Below the pieces are notes generated by a model. The model worked only from the letters and a program-made list of their open reading frames with translations. It was not told where the DNA came from and did no database searches. A program made the translations under genes and the position numbers. DNA of 64,000 nucleotides, taken from positions 8,880 to 72,879 of the forward strand of contig CANGTQ010000005.1 of assembly GCA_947456955.1 (NCBI GenBank), in the 5' to 3' direction. This DNA comes from Flavobacteriaceae bacterium. Lineage in GTDB: Bacteria > Bacteroidota > Bacteroidia > Flavobacteriales > Flavobacteriaceae. Below, one piece after another: positions 30,396-60,989 of the stretch. Every line of letters begins with the position of its first letter. Position 1 is the first letter of the stretch.

Positions 30396-30613
30396 AAAAA
30401 CTATAATTTACTGTAAAAGTACAACAATACAGATAGATTACAAGTTGTTGTAAAATGCTAATTTCATGTTAAATTTTAGTACTTTGTATTGCATAATACC
30501 TTTTTTTAAAAGTATCTTTGTTTAAGAATTTAATCTTTTATGTATAGTATTCAAAGATTCAATCATTAACAAAAAATGAATTTGGTAATCAAAAAATAAA
30601 TAAATCATGTATT

Positions 30614-30955
30614 ATGAATATTGAAAACACAAAAGCTCAGATGCGTAAAGGTGTTTTAGAATTTTGTATTTTATGTGTCTTAAGAGACAAAGAAGCATAC
30701 ACATCTGAAATATTAGACACTTTAAAAAACGCAAAACTGCTTGTGGTAGAAGGAACTGTTTATCCGCTATTGACAAGACTAAAAAATGATGGTTTGCTTA
30801 ATTACCGATGGGAAGAATCAACTTCTGGACCACCAAGAAAATATTACGGTTTGACAGAAATAGGAAAATCATTTTTAACAGAATTAAATGGCACATGGAC
30901 AGAACTGTCTGATGCCGTAAACATCATCACAACTAACAAATCAAAGAAATCATGA
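30614..30955 (+). CDS. PadR family transcriptional regulator
   Basis: 113 aa winged helix. VEGTVYPLLTRLKNDGLL, PPRKYYGLTEIG. Confidence 0.9.
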   Translation: MNIENTKAQMRKGVLEFCILCVLRDKEAYTSEILDTLKNAKLLVVEGTVYPLLTRLKNDGLLNYRWEESTSGPPRKYYGLTEIGKSFLTELNGTWTELSDAVNIITTNKSKKS

Positions 30956-32700
30956 ACAAAACAGTAAATAGTAATATAGGCGGTTTAATTTTTCACATAG
31001 ATGAAGATGCATACCAAAAATTAACTCGATATTTTGAGGCAATAAAACGTTCCCTTTCTAATTCTTCTGGTCAGGATGAAATCATGAATGACATTGAAAT
31101 GCGTGTAGCCGAATTGTTAACTGAAAAACAAAAAAGCGACAAACATGTAATCAACAATAAAGATGTTGATGAAGTAATTGTAATCATGGGTCAGCCAGAA
31201 GATTACCGAATAGACGATGACACAAACGATAAAGCAGCTTCGGAACCATTTTATCCCTATACTAAATCTAGAAAATTATATCGAGATAAAGACAGAGGAA
31301 CAATTGCCGGAGTTTGTTCAGGTTTAGGCCACTATTTCGGAATTGACGCTGTTTGGTTAAAAATCTTATTCCTGATATTATTCTTCGGATTCGGAACCGG
31401 ATTTATTGCATATATCATTCTTTGGATAGCGATGCCAAAAGCAGTAACTACTTCTGAAAAACTAGAAATGACTGGTGAACCAGTTACCATTTCTAATATC
31501 GAAAAAAAAGTAAGAGAAGAATTTGAAAGCGTTTCTAACAAGTTTAAAAACGCCGATTATAACAAAATAGGAAACGAAGCAAAAGCAGGAGCGACAAAAG
31601 TAGCTGATGGAATTGGTGAAATTTTCATGAATGTTTTCAAAGTATTTGCCAAAATATTAGGCACCATAATTTTAGTTTTCTCTTCATTTGCCTTATTGGG
31701 AATATGTTTTGTTTCCATCTTTATGATCTTTTCATCATCAATGCCGGACAACTACATTCTAAATCACATTAGCACACCTATTGGTTTAGAAACACCTATC
31801 TGGGCTCAAGGAGTATTATTTCTATTAGCTTTTGGAATACCAATGTTTTTCTTCTTAATGCTTGGATTAAAATTATTGGTAACCAACTTGAAATCGTTTG
31901 GGAATATTGTTAAATTCAGCTTATTAGGTATTTGGATAATTGCTGTTGGAATCTTAATTTCATTAGGAATAAACGAAGCTACTCAAATAGCGTTTGATGG
32001 AAAAACAGTTAAAAAAGAAACTATCAATATAGCGCAAACTGATACGTTAATAATAAAATTTAAAAACAATGATTTTTATTCAAAAAGTAGTTATGACCAT
32101 ACTGATTTCAAATTAACACAAGATGAGAAAAACAATGAAATAATTTATTCTAATAATGTTACGATTGAGATTATGAAAACGGAAGAAGCCCTACCCTATA
32201 TTCAAATTGAAAGACTAGCCGTTGGAAAATCAGCCAATGAAGCCAGAAATCGTGCAGAAAATATCAAATACGGTTATAAAATTGAAGGAAATAAAATAAT
32301 TTTAGACAATTATTTATTGACCGCTGCTAACTATAAATTCAGAGGTCAAAAAGTAGAATTGTTCTTGTATTTACCAAAAGGAACTTTGTTCAAAGCCGAT
32401 CAAAATGTTCAAAATTATAACAGAACCAGTAACGACTTTTTCAATTTGCACTTTAGTTCAAGTGACTATATTTATAAAGTGGAAGATTCTCAGGTAAAAT
32501 GTTTGAATTGTCCGGCTGATGAAAATGAATATAACGATGTTGAAAACGGCACAACGGAAGTTATCACCAATGAAAATGATAGCACTGATGTGGTTACTGT
32601 AAAAGTTAATGGTAAAACAGTTATTGAAACCAAATCAGAAAAAACAAAAACAGGAAAACTTACTGTTGGCGAAAACGGAGTAATAATTAAAACTAATTAA
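30952..32700 (+). CDS. PspC domain-containing membrane protein
   Basis: Overlaps padR stop by 4 nt. PspC motif LYRDKDRGTIAGVCSGLGHYFGIDAVWLKILFLIL followed by several TMs. Confidence 0.85.
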   Translation: MNKTVNSNIGGLIFHIDEDAYQKLTRYFEAIKRSLSNSSGQDEIMNDIEMRVAELLTEKQKSDKHVINNKDVDEVIVIMGQPEDYRIDDDTNDKAASEPFYPYTKSRKLYRDKDRGTIAGVCSGLGHYFGIDAVWLKILFLILFFGFGTGFIAYIILWIAMPKAVTTSEKLEMTGEPVTISNIEKKVREEFESVSNKFKNADYNKIGNEAKAGATKVADGIGEIFMNVFKVFAKILGTIILVFSSFALLGICFVSIFMIFSSSMPDNYILNHISTPIGLETPIWAQGVLFLLAFGIPMFFFLMLGLKLLVTNLKSFGNIVKFSLLGIWIIAVGILISLGINEATQIAFDGKTVKKETINIAQTDTLIIKFKNNDFYSKSSYDHTDFKLTQDEKNNEIIYSNNVTIEIMKTEEALPYIQIERLAVGKSANEARNRAENIKYGYKIEGNKIILDNYLLTAANYKFRGQKVELFLYLPKGTLFKADQNVQNYNRTSNDFFNLHFSSSDYIYKVEDSQVKCLNCPADENEYNDVENGTTEVITNENDSTDVVTVKVNGKTVIETKSEKTKTGKLTVGENGVIIKTN

Positions 32701-32702
32701 TC

Positions 32703-33446
32703 ATGTTGAAGTTCGTAGTATTTTGTGCCAAAATAATTGCCGCAACTATAGCAGCCGCACTTTTTGTCTCATGTCATGTAAGAGATATTCATTTCGGCAA
32801 TGGAATCGATGGTAATAGAAACGTTACAACAGAAAAACGTAACGTTGAAGGGAACTTTTCAAAAGTAGACGTAAGTCGCGGTTTAAACGTAACATTGGAA
32901 AAGGCTGACAACTATTTTGTAGAAGTAGAAGCCGATCAAAACTTGCAGGAACATATTTCTACCAAAGTTGAAAACGGAACGCTTTACATTACTTCTGATG
33001 AAAATATTGACGAAGCTACAGCAAAAAACATCCGTGTTAAACTGCCATCTTTAAGAGCACTTGAAGCTACCAGTGGCTCTTCAGTCAGTACGAAAAATAC
33101 CTTTGACGGAACTGATTTTAAAGTAAAAACCAGTAGCGGCAGCGAAGCAGATGTAAGCATAGAATATGATGTGGTAAAATGTGAAAGCACTAGCGGAAGT
33201 ACTCTGAAAGTAAACGGAAAAGCACTAAAACTTACTACACATTCTTCAAGCGGAAGCTCTATTAATGCTCAAGGTTTATTAGTTAATGATGTCGTTGCTG
33301 AATCATCAAGCGGCAGTTCGACCAACGTACATCCATTAGTGAGTTTAAAAGCAAAAGTATCTAGCGGAAGCTCTATCGATTATAACAGTTCTCCCAAAAC
33401 TGTAAGTAAAGAAGAAAGTTCTGGCGGAAGTGTTTCTAAAAAATAA
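32703..33446 (+). CDS. DUF2807 / head-GIN domain protein
   Basis: FSKVDVSRGLNVTLEKADNYFVEVEADQNLQEHISTKVENGTLYI then repeated SSGSS beta-helix-like units. Confidence 0.75.
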   Translation: MLKFVVFCAKIIAATIAAALFVSCHVRDIHFGNGIDGNRNVTTEKRNVEGNFSKVDVSRGLNVTLEKADNYFVEVEADQNLQEHISTKVENGTLYITSDENIDEATAKNIRVKLPSLRALEATSGSSVSTKNTFDGTDFKVKTSSGSEADVSIEYDVVKCESTSGSTLKVNGKALKLTTHSSSGSSINAQGLLVNDVVAESSSGSSTNVHPLVSLKAKVSSGSSIDYNSSPKTVSKEESSGGSVSKK

Positions 33447-42315: not shown

Positions 42316-42430
42316 GACACTTTCCAAAAAAGTGTATAAGTTATAAATAAAGGGGTTTGACATTTTCTTTAAGTCTTGAAACCAAAGTGAACTCTTCCTG
42401 AGCGAGCAGCTATTTCAATTTATCCCAACA

Positions 42431-42610
42431 TTATTCACAAAACCAAATTTTTTCCCTGTCCACTTGTTATATAGTTCCATCTGCGTCGTTCATCATACAC
42501 TCTTTGTTGTTTTTACAATCTGAAAGTCCAAGATTATGTCCTATTTCAAGCACTAAAATAATCTTAGTTTTAAAATGGTAAACAAAGCTTTTATTAGGGT
42601 TGATAAACAT
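42431..42610 (-). pseudogene. Possible remnant of an archaemetzincin-like zinc metalloprotease C-terminus
   Basis: Own translation: MFINPNKSFVYHFKTKIILVLEIGHNLGLSDCKNNKECMMNDADGTI*QVDREKIWFCE*. It resembles the HExGHxxGLxHC...CvM...D....C end of archaemetzincins. The first His is replaced, there is an in-frame stop and no N-terminal domain. Confidence 0.35.
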
Positions 42611-42714
42611 AATTATTGTGTAAAATTCAAAATCAATTTTACAATTTTATATAGTTATCATTAAAATATTGTCAAAAATTTTGCAACTTCAAATTTTATT
42701 TATATCTCTGCAAA

Positions 42715-42831
42715 GTATTTCGAACCCATTAAGGGTACCAACCGAGTGAAGACACCACGGTGGTAAAACAATACGGACCCTCAGGTCAAAATAAACGTAA
42801 GTTTCTCGATGGCTTTTATTGATCGAAATAC
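42715..42831 (+). ncRNA. Candidate structured RNA / 5' leader of the downstream orphan operon (unclassified)
   Basis: A perfect 9-bp closing stem gtatttcga (42715-23) / tcgaaatac (42823-31) encloses several elements. These are hairpin ACCC-attaa-GGGT (42724-36), helix cca..cgag (42738-46) / ctcg.tgg (42805-12), and hairpin GACC-ctca-GGTC (42776-87). The segment is locally GC-enriched within a very AT-rich spacer. It has no ORF with a start codon and ends 30 nt before ATG 42862. Confidence 0.35.
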
Positions 42832-42861
42832 AAACTAAATTATTAATTAAAATTTGTTTGT

Positions 42862-43260
42862 ATGAAAGAATTATGTCACTTTAGATTAAAAGATAAGACA
42901 ACATTATCCTTTGAAACCATCCCTGTTGAAGTAAAACAAAATTATGTAAAAACCAAACCTTTACAGAATTATAGTTCAACCTATTTTTTTCTTTCTATTG
43001 CTCATAATCAATTAAACACTTTTATTGATTTAACTGGTTTTGAACCTTGTGTTATTCTGTATTTTGATGACAATCTATTTTTTGAAGGTGCCTCCTATTA
43101 TAGTGTTTCTTCTACTAGTTTTTATTGTATTCAAACACAATCCAAAAATATAATCTTGGCAAAACTACCACAAGATCTTCCTTTAAATTCATTATTGAAT
43201 ATTAGTACTTTAAAAGAAACTTTAAATTTTATTTCTTATGAAAACTTCCTTTCAAGATAA
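42862..43260 (+). CDS. Hypothetical protein (orphan, 132 aa)
   Basis: First ORF after the structured RNA. Overlaps the next ORF by 23 nt. No recognisable motif. Confidence 0.55.
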   Translation: MKELCHFRLKDKTTLSFETIPVEVKQNYVKTKPLQNYSSTYFFLSIAHNQLNTFIDLTGFEPCVILYFDDNLFFEGASYYSVSSTSFYCIQTQSKNIILAKLPQDLPLNSLLNISTLKETLNFISYENFLSR

Positions 43261-44095
43261 AATTAATCAATGTCAATTGGCTACTAAAGCACAAATCCAA
43301 TATTTGAAAAATTACAAAAGTAAGATTGAAGAAAGTTTAGTTTTTGATTCTTTTTTTTCAGAAAGTAAATATAAAGGTCAAGACAGCTTTTTTGAATTAT
43401 GGAATTGTTATGGATTATCTGATGATAATATGAGTTGGCTTAATTTTGGATTTCAAAGTAATGTAACATTATTTCATTCAAAGTATCATTTGATGGAAAA
43501 ATGGTTTGAAATATTATTTAGTAAAAAAATAGCTTTTAAGCCCTTTTTTGATATTGAAATTGAACATCATAACCGAATAAGAGAAAATGCAAATAAAAAA
43601 GGTATTAAAAACTTAGTATTGATTGTAGATTTTGATAAAATAGCTAAAATAATAGACGATCATTTTATTAGTGTTAGTAATTCAAAATTAAATATTAATA
43701 CAGTAAATGGCGCTACAATTACACCTCCAGCTCAAATAGACGAGGCATTAGTAGTTGTACTTTTGAATGTTTCGTATACGGATATTAGTACTATATCTGA
43801 ACTTAAAAACTGGATTTATTTAATTACAAATACTGAAAATCAAACTTTAACAGAACGCTTGTCCTATTTAAATATCTTGGCTAATTCACTAAATGAAGCC
43901 ATGAAAACTTCTGATCATGCTTTATCAAAAGCCTATTTATATGGACTGTATTCACAACTATTAAAATGGATTCATGAAACGTTAGACTTGGTAGAATGGA
44001 CTTGTGATGCTGACTATGAAAAACTACCAATACTCCTATTAAAAGAATTTAAAACGTGTAAATGTTTGCACATGTGGAAAAGTAAAAACAATTAA
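43238..44095 (+). CDS. Hypothetical protein (orphan, 285 aa, predicted mostly helical)
   Basis: Overlapping start with the upstream ORF suggests translational coupling. No recognisable motif. Confidence 0.6.
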   Translation: MKTSFQDKINQCQLATKAQIQYLKNYKSKIEESLVFDSFFSESKYKGQDSFFELWNCYGLSDDNMSWLNFGFQSNVTLFHSKYHLMEKWFEILFSKKIAFKPFFDIEIEHHNRIRENANKKGIKNLVLIVDFDKIAKIIDDHFISVSNSKLNINTVNGATITPPAQIDEALVVVLLNVSYTDISTISELKNWIYLITNTENQTLTERLSYLNILANSLNEAMKTSDHALSKAYLYGLYSQLLKWIHETLDLVEWTCDADYEKLPILLLKEFKTCKCLHMWKSKNN

Positions 44096-44121
44096 TTCAA
44101 AACAAATTACAATATAATAAG

Positions 44122-44556
44122 ATGAAAAATATAGAACAATCAAATTGGTGGGAACACAACCATTTTATCAATGGTTATGGTAAATTCCCTTATGTAATAT
44201 TAAAAGTTGGGTATGCATTATTTATGCAAATTCCGATACACTTCAATAAGAATAATGATATAATCAATTACCCAGGTAGCCATATCAATGGTGTTTCTGA
44301 AACAGATTTAAAAGCCTATGAGTATAACAAATTAAGTTCACTGCACGAAAAAATCATCGAGCATTGCAAATGGATGAAAAATAAAATTGAAGCTGACCGA
44401 GGCGGAACTGTAAAAATGTGCTTGGTAGAAGGACCAGATGTTTCGTATTATTTTGAAGGAGATACAATAGACTTTAGCACGAATATACCTGGTGGAGGCA
44501 CTTTACTCACTCAAGATCATAAAGTAATTGGAATGAATGTCAAACATTATTTATAA
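44122..44556 (+). CDS. Hypothetical protein (orphan, 144 aa)
   Basis: 26 nt after the previous ORF. No recognisable motif. Confidence 0.55.
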   Translation: MKNIEQSNWWEHNHFINGYGKFPYVILKVGYALFMQIPIHFNKNNDIINYPGSHINGVSETDLKAYEYNKLSSLHEKIIEHCKWMKNKIEADRGGTVKMCLVEGPDVSYYFEGDTIDFSTNIPGGGTLLTQDHKVIGMNVKHYL

Positions 44557-44670
44557 CTAAAACTAAAAACAAACGCTTATGTAAAAACAAAGAATTTAAG
44601 GTTAAACAAAAAAGTCAAAGAAGAAATAATCCCATTCCCATTTTTAATTTTAATTTTAAAACCAAATAAC

Positions 44671-45384
44671 ATGATTGTAATTAAATCAGAAGCCTTTATT
44701 ACTGATAAGGGTAAAAGTGAAATTAATGAAGATACCCTGAAGTGTCAGTCGGGTAAATTTTATGTCGTGTGCGATGGTGTAGGTGGAAATGGGAATGGAT
44801 TATTAGCCTCTCAATTGCTTGTTGAATCTGTAGCAAATTCTTTGTCTCATTCTGAGGATTTAGTCATAGCTATTGCTTTAAAAGAAGCTGAAAAAGCTTT
44901 AGAGGATTATAAAAGGAAAAATAAAAATACGTATCTAATGGCCAGTACCCTTGCCTTAACCAAAATTACTGATTCTTCAATACTCATTGGATGGGTTGGT
45001 GACAGCAGGGTGTATCAATTTAGAAATGGTAAAATTATATACAAAACCACAGACCACTCCTGGATTAGTGATGCTATAAAAGGAGGAAGTATTACAGCGT
45101 TAGAAGGACTTTTTCACCCGGAACGCAATAGATTAACAAGAAGTGTAAAAGGGAATTCGCAACCCACTGTAATGGATGAACATATACTAACTAATTTAGA
45201 AGACAATGACTATATTCTAATTTGTTCGGATGGTATTATGGAATCATGGATTGATGAAGATTTAGAAAACTTGTTTTCTGAAGTAAAACCTGCCTCCTAT
45301 TTCGTTCAAAAGCTTCATGAAAATTGCCAACTTTTTTCTAATGACAATTATACTGCTATAGTCTATCAAATAAGTAAATTATAA
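44671..45384 (+). CDS. PP2C-family serine/threonine protein phosphatase
   Basis: NEDT, VVCDGVGGNGNG, WVGDSRVY, DHSW, LICSDGI, a PPM metal-binding motif series. No cognate kinase in the window. Confidence 0.85.
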   Translation: MIVIKSEAFITDKGKSEINEDTLKCQSGKFYVVCDGVGGNGNGLLASQLLVESVANSLSHSEDLVIAIALKEAEKALEDYKRKNKNTYLMASTLALTKITDSSILIGWVGDSRVYQFRNGKIIYKTTDHSWISDAIKGGSITALEGLFHPERNRLTRSVKGNSQPTVMDEHILTNLEDNDYILICSDGIMESWIDEDLENLFSEVKPASYFVQKLHENCQLFSNDNYTAIVYQISKL

Positions 45385-45405
45385 AATTATAAAATTATTA
45401 AACAT

Positions 45406-45813
45406 ATGATCTCAAAAGAATTATTACTGGGTTACGAAGCTACATGTTATAGTATTCTAAATCCTAAAATCGATATTTATCTCGGTAAAGAAAATGAAGC
45501 ATTACAGTCTTTTTTAAAAGAACATGATTTCAAATCTTGGTGCTTCATAACGGCTTGGAATCCTTTTTCAAAAGCACTATCCGTTGAAGAAAACATAGCG
45601 TTGAATTCACTTCTTGAACAAGACTTAACCCATTATGCTGTATTTGCTGCAGAAGGTAAAGACACCATAGGAAATTGGCCTCCTGAAATCAGTTTTTTTG
45701 TTGGTAATATTTCGAGAGAAGACACCATCTATTTGGGAAAGAAATACCAACAAAATGCAATCGTTTTTGGCGAAATCAATGAATCGGCAGAGCTAATTTT
45801 ATTAGTTGATTAA
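45406..45813 (+). CDS. DUF3293-like protein
   Basis: 135 aa. WCFITAWNPFSKALSVEENIALNSLLEQDL...WPPEISFFVGNIS...QNAIVFG pattern recalled from the DUF3293 family. Assignment from memory of the family signature. Confidence 0.5.
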   Translation: MISKELLLGYEATCYSILNPKIDIYLGKENEALQSFLKEHDFKSWCFITAWNPFSKALSVEENIALNSLLEQDLTHYAVFAAEGKDTIGNWPPEISFFVGNISREDTIYLGKKYQQNAIVFGEINESAELILLVD

Positions 45814-45905
45814 ATAAAATTCATAATCACTTATCATCAATGTGTAGAAGCAAAAATAATTTAAAGAGTATAAAAGTATTGTTGTTTAAATAATCAAATA
45901 TAAAT

Positions 45906-46652
45906 ATGAAATTTAAAAAGAGTATTTTCTTTATAGTAACTGTATTAATATTGAGTTGTAGTATCTATTTCTTTAAAGAAAAGTGGTATCCACTTCTAAA
46001 GCGATATTATAGTAAGTACAATAAAATAACCAATCGTGAAGATATTATTTACGACACTAAAACAGCAGTCTGGGGGATTGATTTATCTCATCATCAAGGT
46101 GATGTCAACTGGGATAAACTGGTAACAAGTAAGCCCCATTTTGTTTTTTGTAAAGTAACTGAAGGAAAATCACATAAAGACACCAAATATAATTATCACC
46201 GCACCCAGGCAAGAAAAAACAACATCAAAATGGGTGCCTATCATTTCTTTAGTTACAATAGTTCTGGTAAGTCGCAAGCAAACTATTTTATAAAGCATGC
46301 CAAATTACAAAAGGGAGATTTACCCTATGTATTGGATGCAGAGTATATGCCTAAAATGCCAAATAGGAAAGCGGTTACCAGGGAACTACTCTCTTTTTTA
46401 CAAACCGTTGAAAAGCAAACAAATGTTAGACCCATACTATACTGTGATAAGAATTTTTATGCTAAATATATAAAAGGATACACTAAAAAAGAATATACAC
46501 TATGGTTATGTGATTATAACAGAAAACCCAATATACCCCATTCATTCTGGCAAAAAACTGATAAATTTAAAGTAGAAGGAATATACGGAAATGTTGATTT
46601 TAATGTTTTTAACGGAAACAAAGAGCAATTACAACAATTAACAATAGACTAA
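45906..46652 (+). CDS. GH25 muramidase (lysozyme) with N-terminal membrane anchor
   Basis: N-terminal TM SIFFIVTVLILSCSIYFF. GH25 motifs WGIDLSHHQGDVNWDKL, CKVTEG, GAYHFF, LDAEY. Confidence 0.85.
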   Translation: MKFKKSIFFIVTVLILSCSIYFFKEKWYPLLKRYYSKYNKITNREDIIYDTKTAVWGIDLSHHQGDVNWDKLVTSKPHFVFCKVTEGKSHKDTKYNYHRTQARKNNIKMGAYHFFSYNSSGKSQANYFIKHAKLQKGDLPYVLDAEYMPKMPNRKAVTRELLSFLQTVEKQTNVRPILYCDKNFYAKYIKGYTKKEYTLWLCDYNRKPNIPHSFWQKTDKFKVEGIYGNVDFNVFNGNKEQLQQLTID

Positions 46653-46654
46653 TT

Positions 46655-47053
46655 TTGGCTCCAATCAAAAAAAAATATCAAAGAAAGGTTACTGACATTG
46701 CTACATTGCATTATATCAACTTAGATGGGATGAAAATTACTCTTTTTTCTCCCTATGAAGTAATGGTAAATGAGCTACTTTCTATTGGGGTTAATCCGAT
46801 GGGGAAAACTATTAAAGAATTGCAAATAGAAGTGAGCGAAATTATTCTTAAACACTATATGGATTGCCATTATGGAAAACGTTATATAGCTGGTAATTCA
46901 GAAAACAATAGGATAGATAGATACAATCAAAAAAGGGTAATTATACATCATTTAAAAGAACTTTCTTATTGGCTATATGATTACGATTCTAAAAAAATGC
47001 CTAAAAACATAAAGTTCGATTTTGAATTACATAGAAAACATAATACAACCTAA
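46655..47053 (+). CDS. Hypothetical protein (orphan, 132 aa; TTG start, alternative ATG 105 nt downstream)
   Basis: Starts 2 nt after the GH25 stop. No recognisable motif. Confidence 0.45.
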   Translation: MAPIKKKYQRKVTDIATLHYINLDGMKITLFSPYEVMVNELLSIGVNPMGKTIKELQIEVSEIILKHYMDCHYGKRYIAGNSENNRIDRYNQKRVIIHHLKELSYWLYDYDSKKMPKNIKFDFELHRKHNTT

Positions 47054-47267
47054 TTATGAACATTACTGATTGGATTGCCCATGCCGATTTACTTTACAAT
47101 CAATTATTTCTGATTGTAATGGGTGGTCTATATGTATTGGCTTACCTCACTGGTTACACATAAAAACGATGGGATCTTAAATTTAATAATTAAGATAAAA
47201 TGATTGACTTATTACATTTAAATTTTTCAAATCAAAAAGAAACGAATTAGAAGAGTAGTTTTTAGTA

Positions 47268-47646: not shown

Positions 47647-48351
47647 TTATAGTTTACTTAGTACTTCATACAATTGCCGCATGCCATTCGTAGCTTTTTC
47701 AGAGAGGTAGTAAATAGAACGTTCGTCGTCAATATCCATTTCGTGTGCTAGTGGGTCGATTACTACCATTTGGCTAGCAAAAGGCACATAGTGCGGCAAG
47801 GCATTTGCAGGACTTACCATTAAAGACGTTCCAACTACTACAAACACAGAACAGGTAACGGCTTCTTTTATAGCGGCATCATGAATGGATTGGTCTAATC
47901 CTTCACCAAAAAATACAATATGCGGTCGGAGTTGAGAATTTTGGTCACAAAGGTCGCCTATAAGTACATCTCCTTCCCTATCGTATAGTAATTTAGGATC
48001 AGCTGTTGAACGCGATTTCATGAGTTCGCCGTGCAAATGAATAACTTTGGTTGAACCTGCACGCTCGTGGAGGTTGTCTACGTTTTGGGTTACTATAACT
48101 ACTTCATAGTTTTCTTCTAATTTAGCTATGAGTTCGTGCGCTAAATTAGGCTGTGCTTCGTGGCATTGTTTTCGGCGTTGGTTGTAAAATTCAAGTACAA
48201 GCCCCGGATTGTTGTTCCATGCTTCTGGGGTGCAAACGTCTTCTATTTTGTAATTATCCCAAAGACCGTCTTCAGAGTCTCTGAAAGTTTGCAAGCCACT
48301 CTCGGCTGATATACCGGCTCCTGTGAGGAAAAGTAATTTTGGTTTTTTCAT
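47647..48351 (-). CDS. SIR2-family NAD-dependent protein deacylase-like protein
   Basis: FLTGAGISAESG, FRD..GLW, TQNVDNLHERAG, HLHGE (catalytic His), VVGTSLMV. Short Bacteroidota-type sirtuin without zinc-ribbon cysteines. Confidence 0.88.
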   Translation of the reverse strand: MKKPKLLFLTGAGISAESGLQTFRDSEDGLWDNYKIEDVCTPEAWNNNPGLVLEFYNQRRKQCHEAQPNLAHELIAKLEENYEVVIVTQNVDNLHERAGSTKVIHLHGELMKSRSTADPKLLYDREGDVLIGDLCDQNSQLRPHIVFFGEGLDQSIHDAAIKEAVTCSVFVVVGTSLMVSPANALPHYVPFASQMVVIDPLAHEMDIDDERSIYYLSEKATNGMRQLYEVLSKL

Positions 48352-48386: not shown

Positions 48387-51300
48387 TTAGACTTTTTTAG
48401 CCATTTCTATGAATCTACAAAAAGGATTTGCCAATTTAATTTGTTTCGGCGATTTACAATCGGGTTCAAAAATTGAATTATTAGAAACCATAATAAAAAT
48501 AGCTTTAGCCCTTGATACTGCTACATTAAACCTATTAGGAGAATACAGAAAGTCCATACCTCTTGGTGCATCTTCTGGAGAAGAAGTGGCTACGGAATAA
48601 ATAATCACCGGAGCTTCTTGTCCTTGAAATTTATCAACTGTCCCAATGGACACATCATTAATTTGATCTACAAGTTTTTGAACCTGAGCATTGTATGGAG
48701 AAATGATTTTAATATCCTTTTTAGTTATACTATTTTCTTCTCCTTTACTTGAAATCCATTTCACATCACCTTTGGTTAACTCATTGACAATGTCCAATAT
48801 TACATCTGCCTCTTCTTGTGATGAATTAGTATTTCCTTTATGTTCAACATTTACATAGAATAATCCAGAACCTTTAAATTTAGTATTCCCTATAATTGAT
48901 TGGTTTGCCAGCTCAGGACGAACACTTAATTTTTTTTCATAGAACAACTCTGAATTTAATTCACAAATTTCAGGATGCATTCTCCAGGTTTCTTTTAAGA
49001 AGACTCCTTGTTCAGGTGCTATAGTTTTATTTCCGTTAATAACATGTTCCAAAGCAGAAACTTCTGTTCCTTCAGGATGAACACCCTGTTGAGGCTGTTG
49101 CAATTGTTGAGGATCACCCAATAAAATTATGTTTTTAGTAGATTTTGAAATAGCGAGGGTATCAATTAAAGCCAATTGACCTGCTTCATCTACAAACAAA
49201 TAATCTACAGTATCATTAAAACTTGGTGTACTCCACATAAAACTAGTACCTGCAATTAAATTTACTTCATTCAATTTTGTTTGTATTACTTTTTTATCGG
49301 TAGTAATAGTCCATGGATAAAATTCTTCACTGATACTCGATACTTTTTGGATCATATTTATTTTTAATCCAATTTTATCAGCTTCGGATTGAATTTTCTC
49401 TAACAATCCTGTAATTACTTTATGTGATAAAGCCGTTACCCCTATTTTCTTATTAGCTTGTATTAGTCTAATTATCATATTACTTGCCGTATAACTTTTA
49501 CCCGTACCCGGAGGTCCTTGAATGGAGAGAATAGAGTTATTTAGTTTAGCTGCCCAATCACTTGCCAGTTCTAATGTATCATCTGTGTTTATTACTTCAT
49601 CAATTGTACTAGGTATATTTCTTAATAATAAATCCCTAGCCGCTCTGTAGTTAGGCAAATCAGAATCAAAACCATTATCTACAATCCATTGTGCTAATTC
49701 AATTATAGCATTTTCTTTATCAACTGTTTTAATGTCATCAAAAGGAAATATAGCTATAGGATGCTCGCCAATTCTTGCGTTTCCTCGTTTGATTTTAACT
49801 TCTCTTTTAATCAAATCAATACTTTCAATTGTTCCTGCTGCATCACCATTTTGATTTTTAATTTTAGCATTCTTTTTAATCTCTCCTTCTTGATAAGGAA
49901 AAGTATAGGTTTCTATAGTACTTCTTAAAACAATTTCAGATTGACCTGTATATTGCAAATAACTCAAAGCTGTTTTTTCTTCTAACAATTCATCTGTGGA
50001 AAGATTTTTCAATCTATAATACTCCCACAAAAATGATTTCATCTCCCGGCGATACCAGTTCAACATGTGAGCTAAAATAAATTTAGCCTTATCAATGCTG
50101 GTAATTCGTTCATCACTATTTTCTGAAACGCCTTGCATTAATGCATCGAAGATGGGTTTTATTCTTTCCATATGAGCATTATTTTTTTCATTTGCTTCAC
50201 CTGGTTTAATTTCAGGTCTCGTAATTACAACCCCTTTATCAATCAATTCTTTTCTTAAAGACTCTAACCATTTATGTAATCGTTCTGTACTTATACAATC
50301 ATCTTGATTGTATAATTGAATACCGTCAATCATTTCTTGGGTAATCTCTTCAAACTTTTGAGTTTCTAATAAAAATTCATATTCTGCCTTTATTTTAGAC
50401 AAGGCTCTTAAATCCATTTCCCTAGTATATCCAAAAAATTTCTCTAAATCTTTAATTGAATATTTTTCTACACTTGCTCTAACGGATTGTCTTACTACAC
50501 CGTATAAATCAATAAATTTACCGGCTCTTAAATAGGAATCTATTTCCGTTTCACAAGTAGCATATTTACTCATCAATCGTTTAAAAGCAGTCTTTTCATA
50601 AGGGGCATAATGATAAATATGCAAGTGCGGTTCTTCAACTAATTTAGCCTCTGCAAATGAGATAAATGTTTCAAATGCTACTTTTTCTTCCTCTTCATTT
50701 TTTGCCCAAATGGGATAATATTTACCTTCACAGTACCATCCAAATAGATATTCTAGACCTCCTGGCTCTATCATTGGATCTCCTTCTAAATCCAAATAAA
50801 TATCGTGTTTTGTCGGTTCAGGAAGTTTATTAAACCCCATTTCAACTTCTACAGCTAATGTTTCATATATGTTACGAGATTCTACTCTGCCTTTGTATTG
50901 AACTTTGGCTTGTTCTCGTAATTTTCGGTAAGTATCTATGGCACCTTTTGTTGGAGTGAAATCAACAGGAATCTCCCAATTGGCAAAGCCTTCAAGAGTG
51001 TTAATTTGATGGGATTTGACCTCTTTTATCTGTGCTGTTCCCATACCAGCAACAAAGCCGAGATGATCATCTTTACGTCTTCGCTTATTACAATCCTCCC
51101 ACCAATTGCATATATCACAATGAGTAATAGGCTCAGGGTAAGTATCTTTTTCAATTTCGATACTATCTATCAATCGTTTTTTTGCTAATCTTACAAATGA
51201 AATATAATCATCAACTCTATATTCTATTTTGCACTCAGGATTTTGTACCCACATTTTTTCAGGCATCTTTCCCTGAATAACACCTATTTTTTCTGAATAA

Positions 51301-51746
51301 AGTGCAATTTGTAAAATTGTGCCGGCACGAGTTTCAGTGGCTAATTTAGTATCTAAAACTTCGTATGACCAATTTCCTAACTTGCTTGGTGTATCTACTT
51401 TTAAAATAAAATCAGCCCAACCACCCCAAATTCCATTTTCAACTAATCGTGCTTGATATATAACATCAACACCATTCTCCATAGCGGAAATGGTATCTTG
51501 TTCAGTATTGCTATTCTCTTGATTGATTTCAACAATAGATTTACCCTCAAGACGTAATTGTTGTAAAAAGGATTCTTCAAATTTTAGTCCTCTTTCTCGC
51601 AACATATCTAAAACTCTATTCTGATATACTGGCTTTTTCAGTTCCCCTAAAGCAGCTTTTTTATTCAAATTAGTTAAATGTTTGCAACTAATGTGATTGG
51701 CTAAATCAGATGGGGAGAATATTATATTATCATTTACTTTTTTCAT
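48387..51746 (-). CDS. TM0106-family RecB/Cas4-like nuclease fused to SF1 (Upf1/DNA2-like) helicase
   Basis: 1119 aa. N-terminus FSPSDLANHISCKHL, PD-(D/E)xK ADFILKV...YEVLDTKLA, Cys cluster HCDICNWWEDC. Middle segment IYLDLEGDP (RNase-H-like). C-terminus Walker A GPPGTGKSYT, Walker B VDEAGQ, LGDPQQL, ISPYNAQV, TVDKFQGQE, NVAVSRAK. Confidence 0.88.
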   Translation of the reverse strand: MKKVNDNIIFSPSDLANHISCKHLTNLNKKAALGELKKPVYQNRVLDMLRERGLKFEESFLQQLRLEGKSIVEINQENSNTEQDTISAMENGVDVIYQARLVENGIWGGWADFILKVDTPSKLGNWSYEVLDTKLATETRAGTILQIALYSEKIGVIQGKMPEKMWVQNPECKIEYRVDDYISFVRLAKKRLIDSIEIEKDTYPEPITHCDICNWWEDCNKRRRKDDHLGFVAGMGTAQIKEVKSHQINTLEGFANWEIPVDFTPTKGAIDTYRKLREQAKVQYKGRVESRNIYETLAVEVEMGFNKLPEPTKHDIYLDLEGDPMIEPGGLEYLFGWYCEGKYYPIWAKNEEEEKVAFETFISFAEAKLVEEPHLHIYHYAPYEKTAFKRLMSKYATCETEIDSYLRAGKFIDLYGVVRQSVRASVEKYSIKDLEKFFGYTREMDLRALSKIKAEYEFLLETQKFEEITQEMIDGIQLYNQDDCISTERLHKWLESLRKELIDKGVVITRPEIKPGEANEKNNAHMERIKPIFDALMQGVSENSDERITSIDKAKFILAHMLNWYRREMKSFLWEYYRLKNLSTDELLEEKTALSYLQYTGQSEIVLRSTIETYTFPYQEGEIKKNAKIKNQNGDAAGTIESIDLIKREVKIKRGNARIGEHPIAIFPFDDIKTVDKENAIIELAQWIVDNGFDSDLPNYRAARDLLLRNIPSTIDEVINTDDTLELASDWAAKLNNSILSIQGPPGTGKSYTASNMIIRLIQANKKIGVTALSHKVITGLLEKIQSEADKIGLKINMIQKVSSISEEFYPWTITTDKKVIQTKLNEVNLIAGTSFMWSTPSFNDTVDYLFVDEAGQLALIDTLAISKSTKNIILLGDPQQLQQPQQGVHPEGTEVSALEHVINGNKTIAPEQGVFLKETWRMHPEICELNSELFYEKKLSVRPELANQSIIGNTKFKGSGLFYVNVEHKGNTNSSQEEADVILDIVNELTKGDVKWISSKGEENSITKKDIKIISPYNAQVQKLVDQINDVSIGTVDKFQGQEAPVIIYSVATSSPEDAPRGMDFLYSPNRFNVAVSRAKAIFIMVSNNSIFEPDCKSPKQIKLANPFCRFIEMAKKV

Positions 51747-58172: not shown

Positions 58173-59111
58173 TTAATCTTTTAATATATAAATTAATTCA
58201 TCTATTTTCTCTTTTTCAAGTATAGGTAAAATCCAACTTTTTGGAATTGCAGCATAACCATAAAACAAACCTGCCAATCCTCCCGTTACAGCTCCCGTTG
58301 TATCGGTATCGCCACCTAAATTAACGGCTTTTAGAACAGCGTCTTCATAAGTATCTGTAGTTAACAAACACCAAATACTGGCTTCTAATGTTTGAATGAC
58401 ATATCCACCACTTTGGATTAGATTTTCATTTAATTCATAAATATTTCCGTTAATAAGTCTGTCAAAATGGGGTAATTCAACGCTGTAAATTTTATTAGAA
58501 TTTAAAAACTCAGGGACAGTTTTTTTAAGATTTTCATAAATCTCAAATTTGTCTTTACCTTCCATTAGTTGTAATGCAAACTCTAAGTAATAGAAACAAG
58601 AAATAACAGAACGATTATGTGCATGGGTAATGGATGAAGCTTCTTTTACTAAGTCAAAACGTTTCTCGATACTTAAATCTTTAAGTAGCAATGCTAATGG
58701 TAATATCCGCATTAAGGAACCATTACCATTATCAATTTCATTTTGACCTCCAGCGAGGTTTGGATGAACTCCTTTACTAAGATTGATGATCGATTGCCTT
58801 GTCGTATTTCCAATATCAAATACTTCTCCCGTTGCGGTCCAATAGCCTTCATTTTTCCATTTGATAAATTTACTGGCTAATCTATGGATGTCATATCCTT
58901 CAACAATAGATTCTGCCAAACAAAAAGTTAGCGAACTATCATCAGACCACACTCCTATTCCTTGGTCATGTACACCTCCAGAACCCATTTTTGTTACTGG
59001 ATTATTCTTTAAATATTCCCTACTCTCAAATTCAACAGGGACACCCAAAGCATCTCCCACGCAAACCCCATAGAGAATGTCTTTCAAATAATTTCTTGTT
59101 ACCCTATCCAT
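58173..59111 (-). CDS. ADP-ribosylglycohydrolase (ARH/DraG family)
   Basis: GVCVGDALGVPVEF, WSDDSS, GGDTDTTGAVTGGLAGLFYG. Confidence 0.88.
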   Translation of the reverse strand: MDRVTRNYLKDILYGVCVGDALGVPVEFESREYLKNNPVTKMGSGGVHDQGIGVWSDDSSLTFCLAESIVEGYDIHRLASKFIKWKNEGYWTATGEVFDIGNTTRQSIINLSKGVHPNLAGGQNEIDNGNGSLMRILPLALLLKDLSIEKRFDLVKEASSITHAHNRSVISCFYYLEFALQLMEGKDKFEIYENLKKTVPEFLNSNKIYSVELPHFDRLINGNIYELNENLIQSGGYVIQTLEASIWCLLTTDTYEDAVLKAVNLGGDTDTTGAVTGGLAGLFYGYAAIPKSWILPILEKEKIDELIYILKD

Positions 59112-59144
59112 ATTAATCTATTTATTTAAATTTCTTTATTCTCA

Positions 59145-59405
59145 TTAAAATTTATCTTTTTCATTTTTGTTATAATCTAAACAACCTTTGATATACGATA
59201 TAAACCCAATTAATTCATAAATAAAAACACCTATTATCCATTTTACCATTATGCTTGGAAAAGTAAAAAAAACAACAAAAATTACCACTGTGGAACATAA
59301 AGCATAAGTCTTAAATGCTCTATCTGAATATAATCTTAGAATATCCGAATAGCCAGCTGTAACTAGAAAATTAAAAATAAAGAAACCTAAGATAAATAGA
59401 TACAT
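59145..59405 (-). CDS. Small membrane protein (3 predicted TM)
   Basis: 86 aa, three hydrophobic stretches. 33 nt upstream of ARH. Confidence 0.45.
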   Translation of the reverse strand: MYLFILGFFIFNFLVTAGYSDILRLYSDRAFKTYALCSTVVIFVVFFTFPSIMVKWIIGVFIYELIGFISYIKGCLDYNKNEKDKF

Positions 59406-59483
59406 AGTAAGTAGTTTTATATTAGTGATACAAATGTAGGAATCGATTTAGTCAAAATATGACAAAGTTATCTTCAATTATAT

Positions 59484-60989
59484 TCAATCTGTCCCTAAGT
59501 ATTCCATATCCTTATTTTCTCCCAATTCATTTTTATAACAAACACCAATACCATTTTTTGTATTTATCTCCCCTAGTAAATGTAAATCAGTAAATCCATA
59601 ACAATGATTAATTAATATCGATTTTATTTTATTTAATGCAAACAAGGGTTTTATTGATTGTATTTTATTACAATCACAAAGTTGAATATATTCAAGATTT
59701 TTTAAGTTGGACAGCAATTCAAGATTATCAATTATATTATTATTTTCTATATAGAATTCTTTAAGGTTTTTTAAATATTTGATAGCATTAATATCTTCCA
59801 AAGAAGGCAAATTGTAAAAAGAAATGTCACTGATCTTGTTACATTTTGAAAGTGAATTAAGTGATTTTAAATTGTGGAAATCACCTAGATTCAAGCATCT
59901 GAGATTGATTAAGTTTTCAAATCCGTGTATTGTTTTTACAGAAGAATTATAAATAGATAATTCTTCTAATTGCTGGCATTTTGTTAATAAACCTAAAGAT
60001 TTAAGGGCATATACCGACCAAACTCTCAATGACTTTAATTTGCTTAAATCAGTAATGAAGGATAACGATTTTAATTTTTTATTATACATAAGTTCAAGTT
60101 TCTCTAAAGTAGTAAGTAAGCTAATGTTTTCATATTCAGAAAATACATTACAATCCTCAATTTGAAGAGATTTAATTTTTGTCAAATTATGAAATCCAAT
60201 AATTTCTTTTAATTTTCTATTGCTATTTATACTTAAACGTTTCAACGAATGTGGTTTGTCTAAATGAATTACTTTTATGGAATTACATTCTTGAATAGAC
60301 AAAACTTCCAATTTTTTAATAGCAAAAATGCCATCTATATTTTTTAATTTATCACAATAGGAAAGGTCAATAATTTTAAGATTACTTAATTTCATTATTT
60401 TTTCAATTCCTTTTATATTATTGCAGTTATAGAGTTGAATTTCATTTAATTCACTTAGCTTTTCAATACTTTTTAAATCAGTAATTGAATTACAATAATA
60501 CATCGCCAAACATTTCAGATTTGAAAGACTTTCTAGCGGTTTTAAATTGGTTAAATTTTGTGTTTTAAAATAAATGGTCAGTAAATTGGAATATGTTTTA
60601 CTAAAGCCCGTAAAACATTTTCTGTCTTCCAAAATGTCAATACTTTTTACTCTTGTATTTTCGTTAAGTGTATTTAAAATTTCTAAATCAGGAAACTCAA
60701 TACATTTTAGTTTTTCCAAACATGGCAACTCATTTACTGGACTTAAATCCAATAGAGAATTACAATTTTCTATGGAAAGTACCCGTAATTTTTTAAACGA
60801 ACCTATTGCTGACAAATCTTTGAAATTCTCACAACTTGTAATGGAGATTTTTTCTAGGTCTTGTAATAGAATAAAAGGCTCTAAATTTTCAATTGATGAA
60901 TTGTCTTTTAATTCTAACTTTTTTAAATTGAAGGCAAAAGATTGATTTTCACCATTACTGAGCGTAATGGTAATAAATTCGTTTTTCAT
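59484..60989 (-). CDS. Leucine-rich repeat protein (cysteine-containing, RNI/FBXL-like LRRs)
   Basis: 501 aa. About 18 tandem 22-24 aa units of the form L..L..L.l..C..l.dl..l (e.g. LKKLRVLSIENCNSLLDLSPV, LSNLKCLAMYYCNSITDLKSI). No signal peptide. Confidence 0.8.
   Translation of the reverse strand: MKNEFITITLSNGENQSFAFNLKKLELKDNSSIENLEPFILLQDLEKISITSCENFKDLSAIGSFKKLRVLSIENCNSLLDLSPVNELPCLEKLKCIEFPDLEILNTLNENTRVKSIDILEDRKCFTGFSKTYSNLLTIYFKTQNLTNLKPLESLSNLKCLAMYYCNSITDLKSIEKLSELNEIQLYNCNNIKGIEKIMKLSNLKIIDLSYCDKLKNIDGIFAIKKLEVLSIQECNSIKVIHLDKPHSLKRLSINSNRKLKEIIGFHNLTKIKSLQIEDCNVFSEYENISLLTTLEKLELMYNKKLKSLSFITDLSKLKSLRVWSVYALKSLGLLTKCQQLEELSIYNSSVKTIHGFENLINLRCLNLGDFHNLKSLNSLSKCNKISDISFYNLPSLEDINAIKYLKNLKEFYIENNNIIDNLELLSNLKNLEYIQLCDCNKIQSIKPLFALNKIKSILINHCYGFTDLHLLGEINTKNGIGVCYKNELGENKDMEYLGTD

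Follow-up and report, generated by a model that had tools for sequence, protein, structure and literature searches.

Background

Riboswitch regulons normally consist of the biosynthesis, transport and recycling genes of the metabolite that is sensed. Riboswitches of the SAM-I/IV family (Rfam RF01725), which precede metK and other S-adenosylmethionine (SAM) genes, are the closest described counterpart of the element reported here, a leader RNA of the same covariance-model family and with the same core nucleotides. This leader heads a block of seven plus-strand genes (42862-47053) in DNA assigned to a Flavobacteriaceae bacterium (GenBank assembly GCA_947456955.1, contig CANGTQ010000005.1, positions 8,880 to 72,879 of the forward strand). 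We refer to this stretch of 64,000 nucleotides, the whole of the DNA analyzed, as "the window", and coordinates are positions within it unless another record or locus is named. Like the riboswitches of metK, the leader in the window is predicted to be off when SAM is bound. It differs from them in the genes that stand behind it, a mobile mosaic of orphans, a phosphatase, a SAM-lyase-family protein and a cell-wall hydrolase, and in its expression platform: a 9-10 base pair (bp) anti-P1 helix and a start-codon sequestor are specific to the leaders of these cassettes.

Phages are known to attack the SAM pool. As cited in two reports, the T3 SAM lyase removes SAM and so defeats BREX and restriction-modification (PMC12839542, PMC12255297). 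BREX requires SAM, and phage SAM lyase defeats it (PMC12839542, PMC11842806). In type III CRISPR systems, SAM-AMP is a substrate of SAM-lyase family members (PMC12255297). Lyases of SAM and SAM-AMP contact SAM through a Glu at the end of the T-loop and a Gln in the B-loop (PMC7877911, PMC12255297). A further point of comparison is provided by the defence islands, or layers of "backup effectors", found around BREX; the cassettes described here likewise lie in strain-variable regions together with conflict-type genes, but none of the cassette proteins convincingly matches a PADLOC model. We know of no described defence system in which a metabolite riboswitch is the trigger, and the literature searched contained neither such a system nor any SAM riboswitch linked to SAM lyases or to defence.

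The riboswitch class, PP2C phosphatases, GH25 muramidases and SAM lyases are already known. As far as the searchable literature and libraries go, three things are new: a SAM riboswitch wired to mobile cassettes of orphan and conflict genes across a phylum, an expression platform specific to those cassettes, and the placement of the DUF3293 family in the SAM-lyase superfamily.

Results

A SAM-I/IV riboswitch heads seven genes

The aptamer occupies 42710-42803 on the plus strand and scores 52.8 bits, against a gathering score of 41.1, over the full-length model (positions 1-99). It is the structured RNA that an earlier, first-pass annotation of the window had noticed upstream of the block, and it ends 58 nucleotides (nt) before the first gene. 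Seven open reading frames (ORFs) follow on the same strand: gene A (42862-43260, 132 amino acids (aa), no known domain), gene B (43238-44095, 285 aa, a narrow orphan and accessory cassette member), gene C (44122-44556, 144 aa, a recurrent cassette domain), a Ser/Thr phosphatase of the PP2C (PPM) type (44671-45384, 237 aa, Pfam PP2C_2 and PP2C), a DUF3293 protein (45406-45813, 135 aa, Pfam DUF3293), a GH25 muramidase (45906-46652, 248 aa, Pfam Glyco_hydro_25) and gene G (46655-47053, 132 aa with a TTG start, a recurrent cassette member). A and B overlap by 23 nt, and the gaps that follow measure 26, 114, 21, 92 and 2 nt. The first-pass annotation had all of these coordinates and spacings exactly right. 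Its assignments of PP2C, DUF3293 and GH25 are borne out by Pfam (9e-12, 1e-18 and 3e-42, respectively), and the four products in which it had recognized no motif, those of A, B, C and G, have no match in Pfam, NCBIfam, PHROGs or PADLOC.

Two lines of evidence show the seven ORFs to be genuine genes and not frames that are open by chance in AT-rich DNA. They have homologues of matching length at 71-95% identity, and the ratio of non-synonymous to synonymous substitution rates (dN/dS), computed against the copies in a related locus (L002, introduced below), is low for six genes: 0.22 for B, 0.21 for C, 0.25 for PP2C, 0.09 for DUF3293, 0.11 for GH25 and 0.25 for G. Gene A behaves differently. Its dN/dS is about 0.6 and its product is 33% identical to the L002 copy (42862-43260 versus L002 9271-9633), unlike the other cassette genes of L002, which are 74-84% identical to those of the window. 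Gene A is thus hypervariable, as a result of either diversifying selection or recombinational swapping.

The riboswitch heads mosaic cassettes throughout the Bacteroidota

Related loci were reached by way of proteins, not RNA. Gene B as the query led to L002 and L003/L004, DUF3293 led to L005/L006, L007/L008 and L009, and gene C led to L138 (Christiangramia fulva, complete genome, CP028136.1). A SAM-I/IV riboswitch scoring 45-59 bits heads the array in all six of these independent loci. A scan for the aptamer core pattern, with one genome per species, then yielded at least 119 loci; among the matches listed, nearly all belong to the Bacteroidota (Flavobacteriaceae, Weeksellaceae, Crocinitomicaceae, Chitinophagaceae, Sphingobacteriaceae and others). 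Every one of the 18 pattern loci that were re-tested with Rfam proved to be SAM-I/IV, and the relatives overall score 44-59 bits.

Families in the arrays were assigned by BLAST clustering. The window reads A-B-C-PP2C-DUF3293-GH25-G; L002 reads A-p94-B-C-PP2C-p129-DUF3293-GH25-G-p167; L005 reads A-p94-C-PP2C-p129-FGase-DUF3293-G followed by a 295-aa protein; L009 reads A-PP2C-FGase-DUF3293-G-YkuD-M54; and L007 reads A-C fusion, 217-aa protein, p129-G-FGase-GH25-SIR2-p167. On the P0008 contig, which is available as an order of proteins, the arrangement is A-B-PP2C-DUF3293, a 119-aa protein, YkuD and a 76-aa protein. GH25 or YkuD, SIR2, M54 and others are further cassette types in the mosaic.

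A census of same-strand arrays covered 124 leaders, made up of the pattern loci among the matches listed, the window and five earlier loci. The A/C family is present behind at least 37 leaders and supplies the first gene in at least 34, of which at least 25 begin with A itself by BLAST. MetK, whose identity was confirmed by Pfam, is present behind at least 21, p94 behind at least 19, FGase behind at least 12, DUF3293 behind at least 10, and p129 and G behind at least 8 each; among the matches listed, PP2C was found behind 5 leaders and GH25 behind 4. The order f13-f7-MetK-DUF3293 occurs in L048, L106 and L128, and in L048 a second riboswitch stands directly before MetK-DUF3293. Ten further riboswitch-linked families had no matches in Pfam.

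These data show that the block is a local and partly eroded form of a family of mosaic cassettes, not a fixed seven-gene system, and that such cassettes stand behind SAM-I/IV riboswitches in dozens of Bacteroidota species. The first-pass annotation had proposed a unit, undescribed as a system, that lies behind the structured RNA and beside nuclease/NAD-type genes, and had named as evidence against it a finding that the homologues never co-occur elsewhere. They do co-occur in several Flavobacteriia loci: A, C, PP2C, DUF3293, G and GH25 recur together, the genes behave as a co-inherited unit in the setting proposed, and the libraries and literature searched hold no description of it. The fixed, PP2C-centred form of the proposal did not survive, since PP2C was found behind only 5 leaders among the matches listed and the gene content is mosaic. 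Nor is the trio of 132-, 285- and 144-aa proteins conserved. B is an orphan of narrow spread: when 1.84 billion representative proteins were searched exhaustively with its profile, 11 clusters of it and no distant relatives were found, and its 14 word-indexed homologues are all at least 71% identical. The two most informative features, the SAM-I/IV identity of the RNA and the kinship of DUF3293 with the SAM lyases, had escaped the first-pass annotation.

In some loci, two or three SAM-I/IV riboswitches lie a few kilobases (kb) or less apart, some of them divergent: L011 (1-94 minus, 467-562 minus and 809-903 plus), L048 (4405-4507 minus and 5518-5624 minus), L035 (4943-5035 minus and 5104-5196 plus) and L026 (three pattern sites). 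These four loci resemble an array of riboswitch-gene units, with one or a few small cassette genes to each switch. Another Bacteroidota contig (L022; 498-598 plus and 4396-4491 plus) has a classical SAM-I riboswitch (RF00162, 68 bits) as well as a SAM-I/IV riboswitch in front of metK, so the two classes coexist in one genome.

Aptamer core and expression platform

The core elements CCAACCG, CCACGGUGG and AAAAC-AAURCGG and the G of J1/2 are identical in 50 cassette leaders and 15 metK leaders. The two groups differ only at two J1/2 bases (UCGAA versus AAGAA) and at the second pair of P1, which covaries, and the canonical CAUCAAGAA form is found in the cassette leaders of L007, L041 and L087. 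Because the whole aptamer core is common to the cassette and metK types, the ligand of both is most likely SAM.

A probable Bacteroidota -7 promoter box, TATCTCTG, lies at 42703-42710 on the plus strand. Its consensus across leaders is TAnnTTTG, which we take to be the Bacteroidota -7 promoter consensus; the motif stands directly 5' of P1 in an alignment of 24 leaders (A5) and in both leader groups. Transcription probably starts with the first base of P1, at about 42715. The segment GTATTTCGA (42715-42723, plus strand), made up of the P1 5' strand and J1/2, is complementary to 42823-42831 and would act as an anti-sequestor in the ligand-free state. The switch segment (42823-42835, plus strand) has two potential partners, since TCGAAATAC (42823-42831) can pair with the 5' strand of P1 and ATACAAAC (42828-42835) with the start-codon region. 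In the sequestor helix, the 3' arm GTTTGTAT (42856-42863, plus strand) covers the first two bases of the gene A ATG (42862-42864). The anti-P1 and sequestor helices are mutually exclusive because both use ATAC.

Both helices were tested on alignment A5, which holds 24 distinct leaders, with 500 shuffles and slid positions as controls. In the anti-P1 helix 93.5% of the cells are paired and 15 are compensatory; none of the 500 shuffles did as well, and the slid controls gave 27-52%. The corresponding values for the sequestor helix are 85% and 10 compensatory cells, with at most one of 500 shuffles as good and slid controls of 23-60%. When each locus was scanned separately, the anti-P1 helix measured 9-10 bp, with z = 3-7 relative to shuffled linkers, and ended 33-38 nt before the ATG, and the sequestor helix measured 8-10 bp. 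Both helices lie at a fixed distance from the ATG in leaders that precede A/C, p94, FGase and p129. The metK leaders were considered as a control for the platform logic of the cassettes and were dropped, because the metK platform differs.

An intrinsic terminator was sought in the leader and none was found between the aptamer and gene A; control is therefore read as translational, and the two-helix layout implies a translational switch that is off with SAM bound. In such a switch, binding of SAM would allow P1 to form, and the segment thus freed would hide the start codon of gene A and shut off its translation, which would also lower expression of the downstream genes by way of polarity and translational coupling. 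At low SAM, formation of the anti-P1 helix would leave the start codon free and the cassette would be expressed. No TAnnTTTG box is present in the 114-nt and 92-nt internal gaps, and a scan of the block found no intergenic terminator-like site.

DUF3293 resembles the SAM lyases

The DUF3293 protein of the window matches the Pfam model (PF11697) at 1e-18, and its AlphaFold model has a predicted local distance difference test score (pLDDT) of 89.5 and a predicted template modelling score (pTM) of 0.85. In a Foldseek search of the PDB, the sole high-probability match was the T3 SAM lyase in its complex with MetK (7ock_K; probability 0.87, template modelling (TM) score 0.44, E = 0.29), with PII proteins lower in the same list. 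Among predicted viral structures, the top match was a phage DUF3293 protein (TM 0.81-0.87). Lower in the list came a "structural protein" from a Flavobacterium phage, polyvalent proteins of the ART-PolyVal and RelA/SpoT kinds, and numerous T7-like early proteins some 135 aa long. Three of these early proteins are annotated as S-adenosyl-L-methionine hydrolase (TM 0.45-0.56, E = 6e-3 to 3e-2).

The two families are bridged by the phage vB_FspP_elemoC_14-1A (L137). One domain of its giant structural protein, a virion protein of about 3,700 aa (MT497067.1, 49920-61004), passes both Pfam models over the same residues: DUF3293 at 2e-13 and S-AdoMet_lyase (PF23780) at 1e-6, with 28.9 bits against a cut-off of 28. 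Giant virion proteins with a DUF3293 domain are present in 68 Flavobacterium Elemovirus phage records. Among the cassette-type DUF3293 relatives, 3 of 43 match PF23780 weakly, with a best E value of 0.011. The giant protein of elemoC is itself a candidate for a SAM (or SAM-AMP) lyase delivered with the virion.

Comparison of the DUF3293 profile with a profile of six T3-like SAMases by hhalign gave a weak alignment (P = 0.0013, 68 columns) that was nonetheless the best of 91 cross-family comparisons, and the all-against-all comparison of 14 cassette family profiles revealed no relationships besides this one. The alignment places G89, W91, E94 and Q116 of DUF3293 on G55, Y57, E68 and Q94 of T3, and all four residues are invariant or nearly so in DUF3293 (alignment A4). 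The DUF3293 profile matched no sequence in the PDB and, in hhalign, did not match the T3 SAMase as a single sequence; the link is seen only through the fold search, the SAMase profile and the bridging phage domain. Agreement at the key residues is supportive of kinship with the SAM lyases, not conclusive. Taken with the fold matches and the bridging domain, the aligned Glu and Gln residues indicate that DUF3293 belongs to the S-adenosylmethionine lyase (PII-like) superfamily, outside the Pfam family PF23780. The searchable literature contains no mention of DUF3293.

By its modelled structure, DUF3293 has the PII-like fold in common with the phage SAM lyases (T3 SAMase and Svi3-3; PF23780) and with the SAM-AMP lyases of CRISPR systems, and three features align between them: a Glu that closes the T-loop at its C-terminal end, a B-loop Gln and a Gly-x-aromatic motif next to the ligand. 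In contrast to the phage enzymes, the window protein has a shorter T-loop, is chromosomal, stands under a riboswitch of the predicted SAM-off type and belongs to a family that is sometimes paired with MetK. The same fold also occurs within phage polyvalent and giant virion proteins, namely ART-PolyVal and RelA/SpoT-type proteins and the Elemovirus protein of about 3,700 aa, whereas the window protein is free-standing, 135 aa long and cellular, with about 30% identity to the virion domain.

The other cassette proteins

The phosphatase matches Pfam PP2C_2 at 9e-12 (45.4 bits, cut-off 24) and PP2C at 1e-6 (28.6 bits, cut-off 20.3), and its sequence contains all of the metal-binding motifs DGVGG, GDSR, SDG and DN. 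It resembles the Stp1/IreP phosphatases over its full length, including all of the PPM metal-binding motifs (NCBIfam NF033484, 1e-39, 136 bits), but it falls below the equivalog cut-off of 230, is embedded in a cassette and lacks a partner Hanks-type kinase in the island; no kinase domain was found among the island proteins scanned. It also matches two PHROGs of unknown function and, weakly, the PADLOC candidate family PDC-M21C (1e-7).

The muramidase matches Glyco_hydro_25 at 2.7e-42 (145.5 bits, cut-off 27), and the catalytic D-x-E motif can be read in its sequence as DAE, within "LDAEY". Its N-terminus carries a hydrophobic segment of the signal-anchor or lipoprotein type (…VLILSCS…). Endolysin families of PHROGs match it at up to 3e-41. 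GH25 is replaced by a YkuD L,D-transpeptidase in L009, L011 and the P0008 contig.

Genes A and C are fused in L007/L087 (269 aa), and this argues that the two work together. A protein of 637 aa in L095 has a C-like part by BLAST and an N-terminus that reads as A-like. Gene C has 58 homologues, all unnamed. The first-pass annotation had suggested structure searches for the orphans; the AlphaFold model of the C product is a confident alpha/beta structure (pLDDT 86, pTM 0.81), and Foldseek returned no PDB match for it below E = 1. The G product has homologues 42-77% identical in L002, L005 and L009 and a family member in L007, and G usually adjoins DUF3293. The B product has no sequence match in the PDB and none in the 2.9 million viral contigs of IMG/VR, where the riboswitch core pattern also had 0 matches. 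Because both are absent there, we regard the cassette as cellular and not phage-borne.

Several longer proteins cluster with A/C. Those of L055 (gene 3) and L085 (gene 2) show by eye a motif like a CHC2-type zinc ribbon, and those of L072 (gene 4) and L085 a UVR-like motif, "ENEDFELC..IKEV"; the L085 protein also has a sub-threshold Pfam match to Zn_ribbon_DnaG (E = 0.013). These motifs are just a hint of a nucleic-acid-binding role for the longer A/C-family proteins of L055, L072 and L085.

Genomic setting

Statements about genomic context rest on individual loci. The G+C content of the block is 0.26-0.31, compared with 0.34-0.39 in the housekeeping genes to its left. A strain that is 96-98% identical (L129) has the gene order of the window until dapB ends (41517). 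Beyond that point it runs through lepB, bAvd and WbqC as far as mutL, and no gene of that series occurs in the window up to 64000. Since L129 continues in this way, all of the window after dapB (41518-64000, at least 22.5 kb) is strain-specific. A second stretch specific to the window relative to L129, of 2.9 kb, lies at 30445-33362, and its ORFs read as a PadR-type regulator (113 aa), a PspC-domain membrane protein (582 aa) and a DUF2807-like protein (247 aa).

Both ends of the window cassette carry decayed genes. Upstream of the riboswitch is a pseudogene of an M54-type (archaemetzincin-type) metallopeptidase (42413-42574, minus strand), reduced to about the last 54 codons with two in-frame stops. 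By tblastn it is 72-74% identical to the C-termini of the intact M54 genes of L002 and L005, which lie divergently upstream of the riboswitch in those loci; in L009 the intact gene is inside the array. On the right is a stub of the membrane protein p167 (47056-47163, plus strand), 35 codons long, with 25 of its 35 residues identical to the N-terminus of p167 from L002; it is called as a 35-aa gene in L001. The full-length multi-pass protein of 167 aa follows G in L002 and closes the array of L007. Since p167 is reduced here to a 35-codon N-terminal stub, the window cassette is truncated on the right.

The nuclease/NAD-type neighbours noted in the first-pass annotation encode a SIR2 protein and a fusion of a RecB-like nuclease with a superfamily 1 (SF1) helicase. 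The CobB-like SIR2 gene (47647-48351, minus strand) is convergent with the cassette and matches Pfam SIR2 at 1e-42 and an NCBIfam deacylase subfamily at 1e-58; a homologue of 51% identity lies inside the riboswitch-led array of L007/L087. The nuclease-helicase (48387-51746, minus strand) combines a TIGR03491 match (9e-70) with an IGHMBP2-type helicase of the Upf1/DNA2 type, and its C-terminal part alone has a MkoA-like match in PADLOC (3e-48). In a metagenome-assembled genome of the Cyclobacteriaceae (L013), the array consists of a riboswitch, a 189-aa protein and a 1129-aa protein, and by tblastn the latter is 43% identical to the window nuclease-helicase over its full length; elsewhere, therefore, this gene is itself directly riboswitch-led. 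Further to the right the island encodes SbcC-like and SbcD-like proteins, an ADP-ribosylglycohydrolase, a leucine-rich repeat (LRR) protein and a DUF4116 protein. An ADP-ribosylglycohydrolase followed by an LRR protein occurs both in the riboswitch-led array of L138 (7835-9688) and in the window (58173-60989, minus strand); the two glycohydrolases are 24% identical, and the pair may be another recurrent cassette pair.

Other loci have neighbours of similar kinds. BREX genes adjoin the cassette in L009 (PglZ, a helicase and PglX) and in L138 (BrxL). There is an integrase near the cassette of L002, GIY-YIG, AAA and WapI genes are found in L003, and NERD-helicase and RhuM genes adjoin the cassette of L005. 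Linkage to BREX was considered as a general rule and rejected, as it holds in two of six long loci only, and we claim no enrichment.

Discussion

We favour, at an even balance of probability, the reading that the riboswitch-led cassette is a SAM-depletion response tied to phage or mobile-element conflict in Flavobacteriia. We favour it because phages strip SAM with lyases of the superfamily to which DUF3293 is assigned, and because Flavobacterium phages carry DUF3293 in a virion protein. The genomic context also counts towards it: a strain-specific island of low G+C content, neighbours of the SIR2, nuclease-helicase, SbcCD-like and ADP-ribosylglycohydrolase types, decayed ends and a hypervariable first gene, together with the BREX genes beside the cassettes of L009 and L138, the integrase of L002, and the homologues of SIR2 and the nuclease-helicase that other riboswitch-led arrays contain. 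In such a response DUF3293, possibly with G or MetK, would act on SAM or a SAM-derived molecule, PP2C would act on phosphoproteins and the exported GH25 on the cell wall.

Several observations weigh against this reading. A search of PADLOC-DB v2 assigned none of the seven products to a known defence system; there are weak single matches for PP2C (PDC-M21C, 1e-7) and DUF3293 (PDC-S02, 0.013) and none for A, B, C, GH25 or G. The window DUF3293 protein has no match to PF23780 at E <= 1, and the 119 short (<=8 kb) loci among the matches listed yielded no BREX gene. We infer ligand binding and the direction of regulation from sequence, and a translational switch acting on A need not govern genes 2-7; the 114-nt and 92-nt gaps could hold unrecognized promoters, and the extra riboswitches inside the arrays of L048, L011 and L026 suggest that each reaches nearby genes only. 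Co-regulation with metK fits ordinary SAM-starvation physiology equally well. Finally, a SAM-off switch that drives a SAM lyase would amount to positive feedback, and a MetK paired with DUF3293 would run a futile cycle; for this reason DUF3293 may bind SAM rather than cleave it, or may take another substrate. Three solutions to this puzzle can be envisaged. Cellular DUF3293 may bind or buffer SAM or be a partner of MetK, its substrate may be a conjugate of SAM, for instance SAM-AMP, or the positive feedback, a committed collapse of SAM, may itself be the purpose.

The strongest of the rival explanations, if not in itself a probable one, is that the cassette is an accessory SAM regulon that serves ordinary SAM/methionine starvation physiology and has no role with phages or mobile elements. 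In cells that grow slowly and are poor in SAM, it would adjust SAM turnover through DUF3293 and FGase, the modification state of proteins through PP2C and SIR2, and the envelope through GH25 and YkuD. The same type of aptamer stands before metK in at least 21 leaders and some cassettes have metK beside DUF3293, the SIR2 neighbour resembles CobB-type deacylases, muramidases and L,D-transpeptidases are typical enzymes of envelope remodelling, and no known defence family was matched. Neither Pfam nor NCBIfam identifies any of the seven as an established gene of SAM or methionine metabolism; DUF3293 is assigned to the SAM-lyase superfamily, and related arrays include metK. A starvation regulon does not readily account for mosaic, strain-specific content in variable islands with integrase, BREX or nuclease neighbours, for orphan families of very narrow spread behind a hypervariable first gene, or for a DUF3293 domain carried in phage virion and polyvalent proteins. 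The cassette is also dispensable, since a closely related strain lacks the whole region after dapB. Another possibility, which we judge rather unlikely, is that the riboswitch gates A alone, or A and the overlapping B, and that the rest is unrelated cargo stacked on the same strand. Control is predicted to be translational and to act at the start codon of A, long gaps precede PP2C (114 nt) and GH25 (92 nt), single genes elsewhere have extra riboswitches of their own, and content is freely shuffled. Yet the families PP2C, p129, FGase, DUF3293, G and GH25/YkuD reappear behind a single riboswitch, in a constant order, in L002, L005, L009, L011 and L007/L087, the two long gaps contain no TAnnTTTG box and the block no intergenic terminator-like site, and a SAM-related protein such as DUF3293 is unlikely to be linked to a SAM sensor by accident.

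The remaining alternatives are weaker. The model of the first-pass annotation, in which a stand-alone PP2C controls the effectors of a dedicated signalling or defence system of seven genes, is improbable and has been largely refuted by the census of gene content. PP2C does have its weak match to PDC-M21C (1e-7) and is found with DUF3293 in the window, L002, L005, L009, L011 and the P0008 contig. Among the matches listed, however, it follows 5 leaders compared with at least 37 for A/C; B is confined to a few close relatives, C is missing from L009 and P0008, GH25 is exchanged for YkuD, and no kinase or other partner is conserved. More improbable still is an aptamer variant that senses SAM-AMP or S-adenosylhomocysteine (SAH), so that the cassette would answer an immune signal and not the level of SAM. 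Its attraction lies in the systematic difference from the metK type in J1/2 (UCGAA versus AAGAA) and the second P1 pair, and in the known action of the SAM-lyase family on SAM-AMP (PMC12255297). Against this, all other core positions are the same in both groups of leaders, the cassettes of L007, L041 and L087 have the canonical CAUCAAGAA form, and the requirement for pairing with the anti-P1 segment accounts fully for the change in J1/2. Least probable of all is a prophage or satellite remnant in which GH25 is an endolysin, the small ORFs are phage genes and the riboswitch is incidental. The endolysin match of GH25 in PHROGs (3e-41), the integrase near the L002 cassette and the DUF3293 domains of phages are what one would expect of such a remnant, but A, B, C, DUF3293 and G have no PHROG match, the cassette contains no structural, packaging, holin or spanin genes, and neither B nor the riboswitch core pattern occurs in the 2.9 million viral contigs.

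The preferred reading, a SAM-depletion response tied to conflict, leaves room for a more specific proposal that we regard as doubtful: the riboswitch might be an RNA-built guard of the SAM pool, spread through the Bacteroidota on mobile cassettes. Flavobacterium phages, with the DUF3293 domains that they bring along, and other phages, with SAM lyases made early, would strip the cell of SAM in order to disarm BREX and restriction-modification; as SAM fell, the leader would open and back-up effectors would be translated. These effectors would be the host SAM-lyase-family protein, sometimes a spare MetK, the muramidase or transpeptidase, PP2C, SIR2 and the nuclease-helicase, and they would either restore SAM or halt the infected cell.

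Conclusions

A well-known SAM sensor is wired here to mobile, rapidly shuffled and mostly uncharacterized genes in dozens of Bacteroidota species. DUF3293 emerges as a candidate SAM or SAM-AMP lyase-type protein that is present both in cells and in phage virion proteins, and at least six orphan families (A, C, G, p94, p129 and B) gain a common regulatory context, which is a handle on their function. The findings also frame a testable question: do bacteria sense the depletion of SAM by phages, an anti-BREX and anti-restriction measure, and do they sense it through a riboswitch? Even if plain starvation physiology should prove to be the explanation, the known SAM regulon of a major bacterial phylum would still be enlarged.

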